A DNA stretch of 64,000 nucleotides from Escherichia coli O127:H6 str. E2348/69. Lineage in GTDB: Bacteria > Pseudomonadota > Gammaproteobacteria > Enterobacterales > Enterobacteriaceae. The stretch lies in the NCBI RefSeq assembly GCF_000026545.1, contig NC_011601.1; one strand, given 5' to 3'. Below are positions 1,617 to 11,815 of this stretch, piece after piece. Positions within the stretch are counted from its first letter, which is position 1, and the number at the start of each line of letters is the position of its first letter. Made by a program: the position numbers and the translations under genes. The notes below the pieces were generated by a model that was not told where the DNA came from, did no database searches, and saw only the letters and a program-made list of their open reading frames with translations.

Positions 1617-3056
1617 ATGTCAGTACCCGTTCAACATCCTATGTATATCGATGGACAGTTTGTTACCTGGCGTGGAGACGCATGGATTGATGTGGTAAAC
1701 CCTGCTACAGAGGCTGTCATTTCCCGCATTCCCGATGGTCAGGCCGAGGATGCCCGTAAGGCAATCGATGCAGCAGAACGTGCACAACCAGAATGGGAAG
1801 CGTTGCCTGCTATTGAACGCGCCAGTTGGTTGCGCAAAATCTCCGACGGGATCCGGGAACGTGCCAGTGAAATCAGTGCGCTGATTGTCGAAGAAGGGGG
1901 CAAGATCCAGCAGTTGGCTGAAGTCGAAGTGGCTTTTACTGCGGACTATATCGATTATATGGCGGAGTGGGCACGGCGTTACGAGGGCGAGATTATTCAA
2001 AGCGATCGTCCAGGAGAAAATATTCTTCTGTTTAAACGTGCGCTTGGCGTGACTACCGGCATTCTGCCGTGGAACTTTCCGTTCTTCCTCATTGCCCGCA
2101 AAATGGCTCCCGCTCTTTTGACCGGTAATACCATCGTCATTAAACCCAGTGAATTTACGCCAAACAATGCGATTGCATTCGCCAAAATCGTTGATGAAAT
2201 AGGCCTTCCGCGCGGCGTGTTTAACCTTGTACTCGGGCGTGGTGAAACCGTTGGGCAAGAACTGGCGGGTAACCCAAAGGTCGCAATGGTCAGTATGACA
2301 GGCAGCGTCTCTGCAGGTGAAAAGATTATGGCGACTGCGGCGAAAAACATCACCAAAGTGTGCCTGGAATTGGGGGGTAAAGCACCGGCTATCGTAATGG
2401 ACGATGCCGATCTTGAACTGGCAGTCAAAGCTATCTTTGATTCACGCGTCATTAATAGTGGGCAAGTGTGTAACTGTGCAGAACGTGTTTATGTACAGAA
2501 AAGCATTTATGATCAGTTCGTCAATCGGCTGGGTGAAGCGATGCAGGCGGTTCAATTTGGTAACCCCGCTGAACGCAACGACATTGCGATGGGACCGTTG
2601 ATTAATGCCGCGGCGCTGGAAAGGGTTGAGCAAAAAGTGGCGCGCGCAGTAGAAGAAGGGGCGAGAGTGGCGTTGGGTGGCAAAGCGGTAGAGGGGAAAG
2701 GATATTATTATCCGCCGACATTGCTGCTGGATGTTCGCCAGGAAATGTCGATTATGCATGAGGAAACCTTTGGCCCGGTTCTGCCGGTGGTCGCATTTGA
2801 CACGCTGGAAGAGGCTATCTCAATGGCTAATGACAGTGATTACGGCCTGACCTCATCAATCTATACCCAAAATCTGAACGTCGCGATGAAAGCCATTAAA
2901 GGGCTGAAGTTTGGTGAAACTTACATCAACCGTGAAAACTTCGAAGCTATGCAAGGCTTCCACGCTGGATGGCGTAAATCCGGTATTGGCGGCGCAGATG
3001 GTAAACATGGCTTGCATGAATATCTGCAGACCCAGGTGGTTTATTTACAGTCGTAA
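1617..3056 (+). CDS. aldA: lactaldehyde dehydrogenase AldA
   Basis: 479-aa ORF with aldehyde dehydrogenase motifs (ELGGKAP, FDSRVINSGQVC); RBS aggag. Confidence 0.95.
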   Translation: MSVPVQHPMYIDGQFVTWRGDAWIDVVNPATEAVISRIPDGQAEDARKAIDAAERAQPEWEALPAIERASWLRKISDGIRERASEISALIVEEGGKIQQLAEVEVAFTADYIDYMAEWARRYEGEIIQSDRPGENILLFKRALGVTTGILPWNFPFFLIARKMAPALLTGNTIVIKPSEFTPNNAIAFAKIVDEIGLPRGVFNLVLGRGETVGQELAGNPKVAMVSMTGSVSAGEKIMATAAKNITKVCLELGGKAPAIVMDDADLELAVKAIFDSRVINSGQVCNCAERVYVQKSIYDQFVNRLGEAMQAVQFGNPAERNDIAMGPLINAAALERVEQKVARAVEEGARVALGGKAVEGKGYYYPPTLLLDVRQEMSIMHEETFGPVLPVVAFDTLEEAISMANDSDYGLTSSIYTQNLNVAMKAIKGLKFGETYINRENFEAMQGFHAGWRKSGIGGADGKHGLHEYLQTQVVYLQS

Positions 3057-3064
3057 TGAGTGAA

Positions 3065-3092
3065 AGAGGCGGAGGTTTTTTCCTCCGCCTGT
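3065..3092. terminator. bidirectional hairpin terminator between convergent aldA and gapC
   Basis: aggcggagg tttttt cctccgcct inverted repeat. Confidence 0.7.
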
Positions 3093-3097
3093 GCGCG

Positions 3098-4099
3098 TCA
3101 GAGTTTAGCGAATTTTTCGAGGGTGCGAATAAGCTGTGTGACGAAGCCATATTCGTTATCGTACCAGGCGACCGTTTTCACCAGTTGTAAATCGCCCACG
3201 GCGGTAATTTCCGTTTGCGTGGCATCAAACACCGAACCGAAATGGCTGCCAATGATATCGGAAGAGACTATTTCTTCATCAGTATAACCAAATGACTCGT
3301 TATTGTTTGTCGCCTTTTTAAGCGCGTTGTTCACCTCTTCGGCAGTCACTTTCTTTCCGAGAATCGACACCAGTTCAGTGACCGAACCTGTTTTCACCGG
3401 CACGCGTTGCGCATGACCTTTCAGTTTGCCGCTCAATTCCGGGATCACCAGACCAATGGCTTTTGCCGCCCCCGTAGTGTGGGGAATGATATTTTCTGCC
3501 GCTGCGCGTGAAGCACGTAAATCTTTACCACGTGGGCCATCCACCAGTGACTGGGTGCCGGTATAGGCATGAATGGTCGTCATCGTGCCGACTTCTATCC
3601 CGAAACTGTCATGCAAGACTTTGGCCATCGGCGCAAGGCAGTTAGTGGTGCATGACGCCACGGAAACAATGGTGTCGTTGCCATCCAGAGTGTCGTCATT
3701 GACGTTATAAACGATGGTTTTCATTTCACCGGCAGGGGCGGAAATCAACACCTTCTTCGCGCCAGCATCAAGATGCGCCTGCGATTTCTCGGCGGAGGTA
3801 TAAAAGCCTGTACATTCGACAATGATTTCTGCGCCTTTCGCTTTCCACGGAATATTTTTAGCCTCTTTTTCGGCGTAAACCGCGATACTTTTCCCATCAA
3901 CGATAAGTGAATCTTCCGTATAATCAACGCTCCAGGGGAACGGTCCGTAGTTTGAATCATGTTTCAGCAGGTAGGCGAGAATTTTTGGGGAAGTGAGATC
4001 ATTAATAGCGACAACGTCTATGTTGCTTTTGACTTCAAGTAATCGACGCAACACCAGTCGACCGATACGACCAAAACCATTAATACCAACTTTACTCAT
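3098..4099 (-). CDS. gapC: glyceraldehyde-3-phosphate dehydrogenase GapC (intact)
   Basis: uninterrupted 333-aa ORF with GAPDH motifs ([19 protein letters not shown]). Confidence 0.9.
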
Positions 4100-4287
4100 G
4101 GTCTTCTCCTGTCAGGAACGTTCGGATGAAAATTGATCCTTTCCAGGCTTAGACCAGGATGGCGGGATGGGCAATCTACATTCTTGCAGTGAAACGTAAC
4201 GTACTGAAAACGGGTGAACAATATTTAATGAAATTTTAAGAAAAGCCCGTTATGTTAACGGCAAATTATGTTAAAGCAGGAAATGTT

Positions 4288-4818
4288 ATGGGAAATAAAT
4301 ACTCAAGGTTACAAATCAGCATTCACTGGCTGGTCTTTTTGCTGGTTATCGTAGCGTATTGCGCAATGGAGTTTCGTGGTTTCTTCCCACGTATCGATCG
4401 GCCCCTCATCAACATGATTCATGTTTCCTGTGGCATCTCAATTCTCGTACTGATGGTGGTTCGTCTTTTGTTAAGACTGAAATACCCAACCCCGCCGATT
4501 ACACCTAAGCCAAAACCGATGATGACGGGACTGGCGCATTTGGGCCATTTGGTGATTTATCTCCTGTTTATTGCGCTGCCAGTGATTGGTTTGGTGATGA
4601 TGTATAACCGGGGCAACCCGTGGTTTGCGTTTGGTTTGACGATGCCTTACGCTTCAGAGGCCAATTTCGAGCGGGTTGATAGCTTAAAGTCGTGGCATGA
4701 AACGCTGGCGAATCTGGGATATTTTGTCATCGGCTTGCACGCTGCGGCTGCACTGGCACACCACTATTTCTGGAAGGACAACACACTTCTACGCATGATG
4801 CCACGTAAACGTTCCTGA
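4288..4818 (+). CDS. cybB: cytochrome b561
   Basis: 176-aa product from internal ATG of ORF 4252..4818; membrane protein, histidine-rich helices. Confidence 0.85.
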   Translation: MGNKYSRLQISIHWLVFLLVIVAYCAMEFRGFFPRIDRPLINMIHVSCGISILVLMVVRLLLRLKYPTPPITPKPKPMMTGLAHLGHLVIYLLFIALPVIGLVMMYNRGNPWFAFGLTMPYASEANFERVDSLKSWHETLANLGYFVIGLHAAAALAHHYFWKDNTLLRMMPRKRS

Positions 4819-5307: not shown

Positions 5308-5448
<141 letters not shown>

Positions 5449-5538
5449 TCATAGCCTTTCTCCTTGCCGGATGGCGGGTAAGAGGCTAAGATCTGAATTG
5501 CTAGGTTCATTCGTTGGCCTCGGTTTGTACTGTAGTGG

Positions 5539-5856
<318 letters not shown>

Positions 5857-5863
5857 CTAAGAG

Positions 5864-6940
5864 TCAAGCCGTTATCGGGATGCTGTTGATCTGCCTGTTT
5901 TGATTACGCAGTAATGTATAAACTTCGCGTGAGATATAGCGCTTCAGGCAGCGTATTGCTTCCATTTTTGTATGCCCTTCCGCTACTCGTCTGGCGACAT
6001 ATTCCTTCGTTTTATCGTCAGTTCGCAAACGTCCGATGGCAATGATGTGAAGTGCACTATTTGCAGCACGATCTCCACCCCGGTTAAGTCGATAACGATT
6101 CGTTTTTCCTGAAGATACGGGAACAGGGCTGACACCACACAGTGCCGCAAAACCTGATTCTGATCTTAATCGTTGGGGATTGTCTCCTGCCGTGATCAGC
6201 AACTGCGAAGCGCTTTCGTATCCAATAGCATTACGTTTAATCAGTTCAGGCGCCAGCTCATCGACAATTGCCGCAATCATGACATCCAAATCAGCGATTT
6301 CGTCATGTAACTCGAGATAGCGTCGGGCAAGGGACTTTAATGAAATACGATAAACGTTGGTAACATTGCGGTATTCACTGGCATCAGGCCGCCAGGATCC
6401 CAGAGTCCTGATGAGCTGCATGCGCGTCATATTTCTGAGCTGTTCACGTAATTCATCCGGGGCAGAGATAATATTGGAATGGATAATCTGGAGAGCGACT
6501 CTGCGGGCTGATATTGCTGTTTTTCGGCAAGTTTTTAATACCCGCAGAGACTCAATCATGCCATTGCGCGTTTTGGGTGTGACGGTTCTTATTCCGGAGA
6601 ATGCGGCGTGAGCGGCACATTCAGCATCAATCGTGTCACTTTTACCCCGTTTGCGTCGCTCCATCCGATCTGGCGCAGTCACCTCAAGAACGTCTAACCC
6701 GGCATTCTGTAAATAGCGAAGCAGACCTGATCCATAGGTGCCTGTACACTCAACACCAATTCGCTTTAATGCCCCAAACGAAGTCATCCATGCCAGCATC
6801 TGCCGGTAACCTTGCCGTGTTGTGGAGAAAAACTGGGTCCCCAGAACTTTATTGTTCTGATCTACGACAGCGGCAACGTGCAGATCTTTATGTGTATCCA
6901 CGCCACCCACAACAGCGGTTTCCGTAACTTTACCTGCCAT
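5864..6940 (-). CDS. IS110-family DEDD transposase/recombinase
   Basis: 358-aa ORF with N-terminal RuvC-like GVDTHKD / ECTGTY motifs and C-terminal SGK...NRYRL...GG region typical of IS110 family. Confidence 0.9.
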   Translation of the reverse strand: MAGKVTETAVVGGVDTHKDLHVAAVVDQNNKVLGTQFFSTTRQGYRQMLAWMTSFGALKRIGVECTGTYGSGLLRYLQNAGLDVLEVTAPDRMERRKRGKSDTIDAECAAHAAFSGIRTVTPKTRNGMIESLRVLKTCRKTAISARRVALQIIHSNIISAPDELREQLRNMTRMQLIRTLGSWRPDASEYRNVTNVYRISLKSLARRYLELHDEIADLDVMIAAIVDELAPELIKRNAIGYESASQLLITAGDNPQRLRSESGFAALCGVSPVPVSSGKTNRYRLNRGGDRAANSALHIIAIGRLRTDDKTKEYVARRVAEGHTKMEAIRCLKRYISREVYTLLRNQNRQINSIPITA

Positions 6941-7220
6941 AACAGAGCTCCTGTGAGGAAACAGAGTTGAATCTCCAGACAGATAACCCGGACAGGACAG
7001 TAACGAGACAAACCGTCAGGCCCTTCTTGAGTCACGCGCATCGGTGAGGAGACGCCTCGCATGAAGGCGCTTCCGGCAACCGACAGGTCCAGGGCAGGAC
7101 AAAAGGGTCGATCGCTGTGTGAGTCAGGATGCGGGAAGGTCTTCACTGCATCAGTAATCACACCAGTCTGGTTAAACAGCAAACAGAGTGATGATAAAAA
7201 CTGATACCGGCATTATTACT
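6941..7220 (-). ncRNA. candidate bridge (guide) RNA in the 5' non-coding end of the IS110-family element
   Basis: non-coding 280 nt upstream of recombinase; 7111-7119 identical to left flank 7221-7229; 7087-7097 is reverse complement of right junction 5840-5850; segments near 7020-7027 and 7051-7058 match the element right end 5848-5858. Confidence 0.45.
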
Positions 7221-8080
<860 letters not shown>

Positions 8081-8176
8081 TGGAGCACCTGTGTTGTTCT
8101 GAGGTGAGCATATCACCTCTGTTCAGGTGGCCAAATTCAGTGTGCCACTACATACTGACCCCAGAAAGTTGGACAG

Positions 8177-8712
8177 TTAAACACGAGGCATATAGGTCTG
8201 ATTCCGATATTCAATTGGAGTCAGACCTTTTAATTTCAGGCTAATTCTTCTGCTGTTGTAGTATTCAATATATTCCGTAACAGCATCCTTCAGCTCGCTT
8301 ATATTACTGAACTCATCAAGATAAAAACACTCCGACTTTAAGGTTCCAAAGAAACACTCCACCACAGCATTATCCAGACAATTGCCTTTTCTGGACATGC
8401 TTTGTTTAATACCATGTTCTTTAAGGACTTCTCATACGATACTGCCATCCCTGGTCAGAGTGCAGAACAGGATGCTCGTGAGGATTAAGCTTTTTGAATG
8501 CCTGATCGAGCATATTCCCGACCATGTTCATCACTGGTCTTTCCGAAAGGCTGTAAGAAATAACTTCGTTGTTGAAGAGATCTATTACTGGAGACAAATA
8601 CAGCTTGCGCCCATTGACTGCAAATTCAGTAACATCGGTAACCCACTTCTCGTTTGGCCGCGTAGCCTTGAAATCTCTTTGGAGAACATTGGGGGCGGTT
8701 TGCCCTACCTCT
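8177..8712 (-). pseudogene. IS150 OrfB (InsK) 3' fragment, additionally frameshifted
   Basis: two ORFs (8421..8750 and 8177..8398) in different frames; about 11 nt missing between ...WQYRMR and [15 protein letters not shown]. Confidence 0.75.
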
Positions 8713-8722
8713 CCTCTGTAAG
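8713..8722. repeat. target-site duplication, left copy (CCTCTGTAAG)
   Basis: identical 10-mer directly flanks both ends of the IS50-like element. Confidence 0.8.
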
Positions 8723-10272
8723 CTGTCTCTTGATCAGATCTCCTGATCAAGAGACTTCATCACCAGGTAACCCTCAACCATATCCTGAAGTCTGAACCAG
8801 CCATCCCACATGACTACCCAACCGGGGCGACCGGTGCGTTTGCTGTCATGCCATCGCCCCAGTTTCGCCAGTTTCAGACAGGCCCATTTCAGTGTCGGCA
8901 TCTGTGACGGAAGCGGTTTTCCTTCCAGCTTAACCCACAGCAGTTTCCACTCTGTCGGCGTCAGTATTTTCTCACAGCTGTCATTTTGTGTTTCTTCACT
9001 GATACCGCCCTGCCGCAGGCCCAGCACCCGCACCGCGATAAACGCCTTGATAACCACCATGCGCTCGAGGTTATCCCGGGTCTGCATTCGCAGCGATTCC
9101 ACACATGTACCACCACTTTTCCACGCCTTGTGGTATTCCTCTATCAGCCAGCGTCGCTCGTAATGGCTGACGATACGTCGCGCATCGGCGGCACTCGCCA
9201 CTTTTTCTGACGTCAGCAGATGCCAGCAGGCGCCGTCCTCTGCCTGCTCCCGGCAACAGACATACGTGAGCGGGAGCGCCTGGCCGCTGTTGTCGGGATT
9301 TTTTATGCTGACTTCGCTGTAACTGATGAACATCCGGGCCTGGCGGGCTGCCCGCCCGCCTTTTTGCATCACATTCAGCGTGTGGCTTCCCGCGGTTGCC
9401 AGGACTTCCGGCAGTTCGAAGAGCTTGCCGGGTGCTTCTTCCAGCCGGCGATTCTGTGCTGCACGCACCACGAAGCGCTGCCCGTGGCTGACTTTATAAT
9501 GCAGGTAATGCCAGATATCCGCTTCCCGGTCACAGACAGTGATTACCCGTTTCTGTATCTCCCCCAGCCGTTCGGCCATGCGCTCCGAAGCCTGCTGCCA
9601 GCGGTAACTTTCTTTTTCTTCATAGGGACGTTCTTTTCGCTGGTGCTTAACACCGTAGGTGTCCGTGGCACGACTCCAGCGCTGCTGTTCGATAAGACCG
9701 ACTGGCAGGGCGCTGTCGGGGGCGTACATCAGGACAGAGTGAGCCAGCAGCCCGCGCGTCTTCGGGTTAGTGGTGGTATTCCCCAGGTCATCAGATGCCG
9801 TACTGTGACTGAAGTTAATGGTGGTGGTGTCTTCCAGCGCGAGGAGCAGCGGATGAGCCTCACATGCCCTTACAGTGGCGGTAAATCCGGCTTCGGCAAT
9901 GGCTTGCGGGGACACAGACGGGTTACGTATCAGGCGGTACGCACCTTCAACCTGAGCAGTGGACTGGGATGATTTCACAATAGAAAGACCTGCATGCTGA
10001 GCGAGAGAAGAGGCCAGTGACACAAGGCGTCGTGTACGACGCGGATCACCGAGACGGGCATGTCCAAACTGCTCGTTAGCCCATGAATAACAATCAGAAA
10101 GTACCATAACAGACCCGAAGAAAATGAAATATAAGAGAAGATCAACGGGTGAGGAAAAAGTTCAAAAAATCGCTGCCGGGGAGGAAGGAAACTACCGGAT
10201 GGAAAGAGTCCCCCTAAAGCAGACTGACAGACATCACAAATCCCCGGGTGGGGATTTGTGTATAAGAGACAG
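8723..10272 (-). mobile_element. IS50-like IS4-family insertion sequence (about 1550 bp)
   Basis: 19-bp ends CTGTCTCTTGATCAGATCT (8723-8741) and rc CTGTCTCTTATACACAAAT (10254-10272); single transposase ORF; flanking direct repeat. Confidence 0.8.
8734..10107 (-). CDS. IS4-family (Tn5/IS50-like) DDE transposase
   Basis: 457-aa ORF; conserved [38 protein letters not shown] motifs; stop codon lies inside the terminal repeat. Confidence 0.9.
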
Positions 10273-10282
10273 CCTCTGTAAG
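10273..10282. repeat. target-site duplication, right copy (CCTCTGTAAG)
   Basis: identical to 8713-8722. Confidence 0.8.
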
Positions 10283-10577
10283 AGCGGTATCGCTTGACCT
10301 TAATCGCTGCCTTCAGTGAGAGGATTCCCATCAGGCGCTGAACAGCTTTATGGTTAATCTGTTTCCCTTCTCGATGAAGAGACAGCGTTACCCTACGGTA
10401 TCCGTATCGGCCTCTATTCTCATGATAAATCTCACCAATACGCTTTTTAACGTCCGCATACTTGTCAGGCTTGCTGAGAGCCTTTAGATGGTAATAAAAC
10501 GTACTGCGCGGTATCTCCGCAGCCCTGAGAAGCTCATCAAGAGGATAAAACTGCCTTAGCTCGTTGAGTACTTTCAC
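10283..10577 (-). pseudogene. IS150 OrfB (InsK) 5' fragment
   Basis: GTG-initiated frame MKVLNELRQFYPLDELL...KRYRSYRG then reads into the IS50-like insert. Confidence 0.8.
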
Positions 10578-11095
10578 TTTTTCGTGGGATGAGCTAAGGC
10601 TTTCAGCTTTTTTAGATACACAAGCCGCGTTTCAAGAAATCGAACTTGCCTTTCAAGATCCTCAATGCGTCGGTCTTTTGACAGCTCCAATGCTGATGCC
10701 GCTTTTTCTGGATCAACTGATATTGCAATGTTTCTTTTGGTGCCAATCTTGAGCGCGCGTAAACCAGCTTCTCCGCGCTCTTCATAAACCTTCAGCCACC
10801 TGGCTACAGAACCACTACCAGCAAGCATAAAGTGAGCAGCAGCCTGATTAAGGGACATGTGCTGCTCGATCACAGCTTTCATGACCTTAATACGCAACTC
10901 AGGAGCAGCACTAACACCTTTAGGTTTGGGAATTAAACCTTTTTCTCCATGTTTTTCATAGAGGGCAACCCATGTCCTGACCTGGGTTCGGGGGACACCA
11001 AAACGTGCCGAGATGATCCTGTAACCATCATCAGTAGTGAAGTAGTGATTCACGACTTCAAGGCGCTTTTCAAAAGGGTATTTTGGCTTTGACAT
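10574..11095 (-). CDS. IS150 OrfA (InsJ)
   Basis: 173-aa ORF MSKPKYPFEKRLEVVNHY... Confidence 0.9.
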   Translation of the reverse strand: MSKPKYPFEKRLEVVNHYFTTDDGYRIISARFGVPRTQVRTWVALYEKHGEKGLIPKPKGVSAAPELRIKVMKAVIEQHMSLNQAAAHFMLAGSGSVARWLKVYEERGEAGLRALKIGTKRNIAISVDPEKAASALELSKDRRIEDLERQVRFLETRLVYLKKLKALAHPTKK

Positions 11096-11334
11096 ATCAG
11101 GGGCTATTCCATTTCATCGTCCAACAAAATGGGTGCAGTACAGTTGATAGAAATATCGGTCGGGGCCTTCGTCTTTCTGATTCCCGGTTAGCCTGAAAAC
11201 AGAAAGTCTCAGGCACCCGTGAGCATCCTATGTGGTTTCCTTAGGGTCGAAAATAATCACCTGACGAAATTGCGTGCTGTTTTCCAGAATTTTTCGTCAT
11301 TCGGTTTAGTCAGTTTAATCATTCGTTACTCTCG

Positions 11335-11778
11335 CAAGGCCGTGGATTTGCCGTTGTCGCCAGCGAAGTACGGACACTCGCAAGCCGCAGCGCCCAGACG
11401 GCGAAAGAGATTGAAGGCTTGATCAGTGAATCAGTCAGGTTAATTGACCTGGGATCGGATGAGGTGGCAACGGCAGGGAAAACCATGTGCACTATTGTTG
11501 ATGCCGTCGCGAGTGTCACACATATCATGCAGGAAATCGCCACCGCCTCGGATGAACAAAGTCGAGGCATAACGCAGGTTAGCCAGGCGATTTCTGAAAT
11601 GGATAAGGTGACGCAACAGAATGCTTCTCTGGTAGAAGAGGCCTCAACGGCAGCGGTGTCCCTTGAAGAACAGGCGGCACGATTAACTGAGGCGGTGGAC
11701 GTATTCCGTCTGAACAAACATTCTGTGTCGGCAGAACCTCGCGGAGCTTGTGAACCAGTTAGTTTTGCTACGGTGTGA
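11335..11778 (+). pseudogene. trg: methyl-accepting chemotaxis protein Trg, 3' fragment only
   Basis: frame encodes MCP signalling domain from [12 protein letters not shown]... to C-terminus; no 5' part of the gene, IS cluster lies upstream. Confidence 0.75.
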
Positions 11779-11815
11779 AAATGTTAAAGGAGGGATCGAC
11801 AGATCCCTTCACCTT

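Follow-up and report, generated by a model that had tools for sequence, protein, structure and literature searches.

An intact and very probably functional gapC gene in Escherichia coli E2348/69, and its inactivated counterpart in K-12

The chromosome of the enteropathogenic Escherichia coli O127:H6 strain E2348/69 carries an intact gapC gene, located on the minus strand at positions 3098-4099 of the 64-kb stretch of DNA that was analysed (the window). Taken together, sequence comparisons and published work on a nearly identical enzyme make it highly probable that this gene encodes a working, sigma-S-dependent GAPDH and represents the ancestral and majority state of E. coli, the gene having been lost in K-12 and its relatives.

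The original prediction had described an uninterrupted reading frame of 333 codons with all of the GAPDH hallmark motifs, and both parts of this description were borne out. The frame occupies exactly 3098-4099, on a strand that the prediction had left unstated, and runs from an ATG start codon to a TGA stop codon (3098-3100). The RefSeq annotation of E2348/69 lists the same gene as an intact 'gap' (WP_000048692.1; 100% nucleotide identity). Its product is predicted to be a type I, NAD-dependent, phosphorylating GAPDH. In a search against the NCBIfam profiles, the type I GAPDH equivalog TIGR01534 was the only model with a cutoff that the protein passed (448.8 bits, cutoff 367.2), and it was matched over all of its profile positions (1-330 of 330). 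Both Pfam domains of the family were also found, namely PF00044 (Gp_dh_N; residues 3-102, E = 7e-36) and PF02800 (Gp_dh_C; residues 155-313, E = 1e-58). The set of catalytic and phosphate-site residues is complete, comprising S149-C150-TTNC154, His177, Thr180, Arg195/Arg198, Thr209-Gly210 and Arg232. Catalytic Cys150 is encoded by TGC at 3650-3652 (minus strand), within the motif SCTTNC, and His177 by CAT at 3569-3571 (minus strand). The elements for NAD binding are likewise present, with a Rossmann motif at residues 5-14 and Asp34 in the sequence AINDL, and a WYDNE motif lies at residues 312-316. The base composition of the gene is ordinary (GC 0.484, GC3 0.509; 0.502 for the window). Every membership test that was run, for type I GAPDH as well as for orthology with E. 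coli gapC, gave a positive result for the E2348/69 gene. On its sequence, the protein is a type I GAPDH, and a chance match is excluded.

The gene order in E2348/69 is hrpA, ydcF, aldA, gapC, cybB, ydcA and a hok remnant, which is identical to that of K-12; gapC is transcribed convergently with aldA and divergently from cybB. This aldA-gapC-cybB arrangement was kept in K-12, E2348/69 and 10 other sampled strains, while an eleventh, SCPM-O-B-7615, has a form of the locus truncated by IS1. A Shine-Dalgarno sequence, AGGAG, could be read 6 nt 5' of the gapC ATG (4106-4110, minus strand), and alignment found it unchanged in five E. coli lineages, K-12 among them. The aligned stretch 5' of gapC, which includes the divergent intergenic region between gapC and cybB (4100-4287), showed a mean column identity of 89% across lineages; this intergenic region is the putative home of a sigma-S-dependent gapC promoter. 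A scan for the sigma-70 consensus near gapC returned one minus-strand site (4294-4265) against 1.8 expected from shuffled sequences, with none above chance, and since the count lay within the shuffle expectation the site was dropped as a candidate gapC promoter. A GC-rich hairpin, AGGCGGAGG-TTTTTT-CCTCCGCCT, is found at 3067-3090, where aldA and gapC converge. Its predicted folding energy is -18.5 kcal/mol (z = -4.3), which none of 200 shuffles equalled, suggesting that it is probably a terminator shared by the two genes. The hairpin was not reported by the terminator scan because it is not followed by a run of T residues.

That the window derives from a lineage other than K-12, as had been proposed, also held: gapC is 100% identical to that of E2348/69, and the 64 kb are colinear with the E2348/69 assembly NZ_CP059840.2 except for one indel of 1 bp. 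This sole difference, at about 7,101 (GGACAAAAGG versus GGACACAAAGG), falls within an insertion sequence region and suggests that the window was taken from another assembly of this strain. A nest of such elements extends over roughly 5,400-11,800, just past the hok remnant, and contains IS3-family fragments, an intact IS110-like ISEc21, an intact IS4-like ISEc13 and a further transposase fragment. It has reduced the chemoreceptor gene trg to a C-terminal fragment (about 11336-11779), whereas trg is intact at this place in K-12; E2348/69 has thus kept gapC and lost trg, and K-12 the reverse. Farther along (about 41,300-43,500), two gene remnants, one for an RHS-repeat core protein and the other for a 'phage late control D' (VgrG-like) protein, both annotated as truncated pseudogenes, adjoin a SymE-family toxin gene.

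The statement that gapC is a split pseudogene in K-12 proved to be correct. In MG1655 (NC_000913.3), gapC (b4493; formerly gapC_1/b1417 and gapC_2/b1416) is annotated as a pseudogene of 1001 bp, and papers on K-12 have named it as a split gene, for example gapC_1 (PMC4447067). The K-12 gene shares the locus, start, stop, ribosome binding site and upstream region of its E2348/69 counterpart. The two are not identical across the gene, a global alignment giving 24 differences over 1002 positions (97.6% nucleotide identity), and this alignment placed two disabling lesions in the K-12 sequence. The first changes the Lys39 codon AAA, retained at 3983-3985 (minus strand) in E2348/69, to the stop codon TAA (K39*). 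The second is the loss of 1 bp in codon 249, which causes a frameshift. A substitution, R18G, further distinguishes the K-12 gene, and E2348/69 is free of all three changes. Around codon 249, most intact strains carry GGAAAAAAAGTG, with a run of seven A residues (A7) whose 31-mer was found in 7 of the sampled gapC loci, while K-12 has GGAAAAAAGTG, with six (A6). The K-12 frameshift is accordingly read as a homopolymer slip from A7 to A6. In E2348/69 the corresponding sequence is GGAAAGAAAGTG (AAAGAAA), in which codon 249 is AAG (3353-3355, minus strand), and the run of A residues (3347-3358 of the window; gapC codons 247-250) is broken by this synonymous G.

The distribution of these alleles was established in 5,426 complete E. 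coli genomes, of which 5,417 contained gapC when matched at 90% identity or more. Alleles were counted by megablast with 31-mers, for which an exact word of 28 bases must span the variant site, so that a match means that the allele is present. The codon 39 stop allele was detected in 1,154 genomes and the Lys allele in 3,711; the A6 frameshift allele was detected in 1,049, and the AAAGAAA allele of E2348/69 in only 308. With the stop and frameshift 31-mers concatenated, matches were obtained at 2,203 places in 1,163 genomes. At least one K-12 lesion was thus present in 1,163 of the 5,426 genomes (21%), made up of 1,040 with both, 114 with the stop only and 9 with the frameshift only, and about 78% had neither. 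By these counts, intact gapC is the majority state of E. coli and no peculiarity of the E2348/69 lineage. Since the stop alone is found in 114 genomes and the frameshift alone in 9, the stop probably preceded the slip in the K-12 lineage. About a fifth of genomes evidently dispense with gapC, so that its contribution to fitness is conditional.

The individual strains that were sampled reflected the same variety. In seven diverse strains, O157:H7 among them, gapC is annotated as intact; YSP8-1 has only the stop, and the gapC of AH65 is identical to that of K-12. In strain 12867, gapC has an indel near nucleotides 163-166 that was found in no other genome. In SCPM-O-B-7615 (locus 2501-4678), insertion of IS1A and an adjoining deletion have removed the 3' four-fifths of gapC together with the 3' end of aldA, which constitutes an independent route to loss of the gene. 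The A6 allele of P15-385 lies on a flanking haplotype unlike that of K-12 and is therefore apparently either a second slip that arose separately or an assembly error in the homopolymer. Among the genomes with K-12 lesions are many natural isolates, whose sources were humans, pigs, chickens, a migratory bird and a frog. As the lesions are common in such isolates, they may reflect a polymorphism of one natural lineage rather than an effect of laboratory culture alone. The wider proposal that the K-12 lesions are a natural, one-lineage polymorphism and not a product of laboratory domestication, and that A7 is a recurrent slip site abolished in the AAAGAAA allele, is put forward only tentatively.

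Copies of gapC were also encountered in five E. coli records labelled as plasmids, which are either 4.8-4.9 Mb in size or 250-385 kb and non-mobilizable. These are probably mislabelled chromosome, and plasmid carriage as a sign of gapC mobility was rejected. A gap gene with 74.5% identity to gapC is present on two Pantoea megaplasmids of about 0.5 Mb. Lateral acquisition of gapC has been claimed in the literature. Knock-outs of Klebsiella gapA and gapC were set aside, as the names used for these genes do not establish that they are orthologues of the E. coli genes.

The potential functionality of the E2348/69 gene, which had also been suggested, was well supported by comparison of the intact alleles. 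Among eight such alleles (28 pairs; Nei-Gojobori method), dN/dS ranged from 0.00 to 0.066, with dS reaching 0.22, and alleles differed by up to 45 synonymous changes compared with at most 5 non-synonymous changes. Because of these low ratios, the intact gapC alleles are considered to be under strong purifying selection. Further support came from a PDB sequence search, in which entry 7C5F and about 13 related entries were identical to the E2348/69 protein at 329 of 333 residues. These entries (7C5F, 7C5G-7C5R and 7C7K; Zhang et al. 2020/2021) describe EcGAPDH1, a 'type 1 GAPDH from E. coli', which has the same catalytic residues, Cys150 and His177. The four differences between E2348/69 and 7C5F (Y60F, V161A, K262Q and N265T) are conservative and fall at positions that also vary relative to GapA, which has Val at 161; the identical set is found in the common intact chromosomal allele. 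EcGAPDH1 is an active NAD-dependent GAPDH with a KM of 0.73 mM for G3P, its activity is abolished in the C150A mutant and cut by about 8,000-fold in H177A and 38,000-fold in C150S, and its thioacyl and BPG complexes have been trapped (PMC8615399). Given the low dN/dS, the conserved ribosome binding site and upstream region, and the existence of an active enzyme that differs at only four residues, the gapC gene of E2348/69 is, with high confidence, very probably functional.

The residue matches show that the published EcGAPDH1 structures derive from the common intact allele of gapC and not from the housekeeping gene gapA. The paper that describes them is without the name gapC, and introduces the enzyme via the secreted GAPDH of enteropathogenic E. 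coli, with the paralog unspecified (PMC8615399). The best 60 matches of the PDB search ranged from 723 bits for EcGAPDH1 down to about 305 bits and included many unlabelled GAPDH chains. Several of the higher-scoring matches are, judging by their entry codes, presumably Gram-positive enzymes. GapA (b1779), the housekeeping glycolytic GAPDH, has the same fold, domains and catalytic residues as the gapC protein, and its residues align with C150, H177, T180, R195, R198, T209-G210 and R232; however, the two proteins are only 47% identical.

With respect to expression, several published observations bear on gapC. According to the portions of the study by Espinosa-Urgel and Kolter (Mol Microbiol 1998, 28:325) that are relayed in later papers, the gene is intact in environmental isolates and truncated in laboratory strains (PMC2949598, PMC1796617), it is expressed in fresh water (PMC2949598), and laboratory strains with the truncated gene still activate its promoter (PMC2949598, PMC1796617). 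In K-12, ChIP-seq located a peak of sigma-S RNA polymerase that was assigned to gapC_1/cybB (PMC4447067). K-12 gapC transcripts are lowered by inactivation of rpoS and raised in PTS- derivatives growing slowly on glucose, and the gene has been grouped with rpoS-dependent 'putative gluconeogenic' genes (PMC2759082). The expression of gapC is sigma-S-dependent, unlike that of the constitutively glycolytic GapA (PMC4447067, PMC2759082). We infer from this literature that gapC may serve as an auxiliary GAPDH for starvation and slow growth or for life outside the host, the aquatic and starvation part of this role deriving from the one 1998 study as relayed.

It was also considered that the intact reading frame might be a silent relic, either unexpressed or making no contribution, which has merely not yet acquired a disabling mutation. 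Such a reading would fit the repeated losses of the gene, through K39*, A7 to A6 slips on two haplotypes, an indel confined to one strain and truncation by IS1, and it would also fit the result of the sigma-70 scan near gapC. The ratio of synonymous to non-synonymous changes among intact alleles is, however, at odds with neutral drift, roughly 78% of genomes are without either K-12 lesion, and both the ribosome binding site and the upstream region are conserved. Furthermore, sigma-S polymerase is found at the gapC promoter region (PMC4447067), and the transcripts respond to rpoS and to slow growth in PTS- K-12 derivatives (PMC2759082). A silent relic is consequently regarded as very unlikely.

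Divergence of the protein towards an Epd/GapB-like erythrose-4-phosphate dehydrogenase (E4PD), a GAPDH that is NADP-dependent or gluconeogenic, or one that is linked to ArsJ and detoxifies arsenate could be imagined, given that glycolysis is already served by GapA so that a paralog might specialise, that the E4PD and ArsJ-associated models gave weaker matches and that gapC was placed in the 'putative gluconeogenic' group, but this is extremely unlikely: Epd/GapB shares the superfamily and its profiles match only in part, the gapC protein scoring well under the E4PD cutoffs (TIGR01532, 279.9 bits versus 530.55; NF010058, 283.1 versus 539) and the ArsJ-associated cutoff (NF033735, 309.3 versus 450), with the generic type I equivalog alone being passed; Asp34, which in GAPDH is consistent with a preference for NAD rather than NADP, is in place; arsJ is absent nearby, the neighbours of gapC being aldA and cybB; and the near-identical EcGAPDH1 turns over G3P with NAD+ (PMC8615399).

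The preferred reading remains that of an intact chromosomal gene encoding an ordinary, working GAPDH. By the mechanism known from the protein that differs at four residues, Cys150 would attack glyceraldehyde-3-phosphate to form a hemithioacetal, from which hydride would pass to NAD+ with the assistance of His177, giving a thioacyl enzyme that phosphate would then cleave to release 1,3-bisphosphoglycerate. Going by the literature, expression would proceed from the gapC-cybB intergenic region in a sigma-S-dependent manner during starvation, in stationary phase or in water outside the host, and the product would act as an auxiliary GAPDH under slow-growth conditions. In K-12 and its relatives, which make up about 21% of complete genomes, the gene would have been inactivated by K39* and then by the A7 to A6 slip in codon 249, with E2348/69 representing the ancestral, majority state.

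Much of this picture is already known. The existence of intact and pseudogene forms of gapC has been on record since 1998, as far as that study is relayed in later papers, the activity and structure of the enzyme have been published and the intact gene is annotated in RefSeq. The small additions made here are the lesion census (21% of genomes, nearly always with both lesions) and the apparent recurrence of the A7 slip. For E2348/69 itself, the intact gapC means little beyond a correct annotation. K-12 is unrepresentative of the species at this locus, and metabolic models and engineering based on it omit a second GAPDH that is encoded by about four-fifths of E. coli genomes. The frequency of the lesions in wild isolates also tempers the framing of the K-12 gene as a case of 'laboratory domestication'. 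If the lesions are indeed a natural polymorphism of one lineage and the A7 tract a recurrent slip site, the presence or loss of a working gapC would mark an ecological trade-off that has recurred, in which a sigma-S-dependent GAPDH for life outside the host is either kept or given up.
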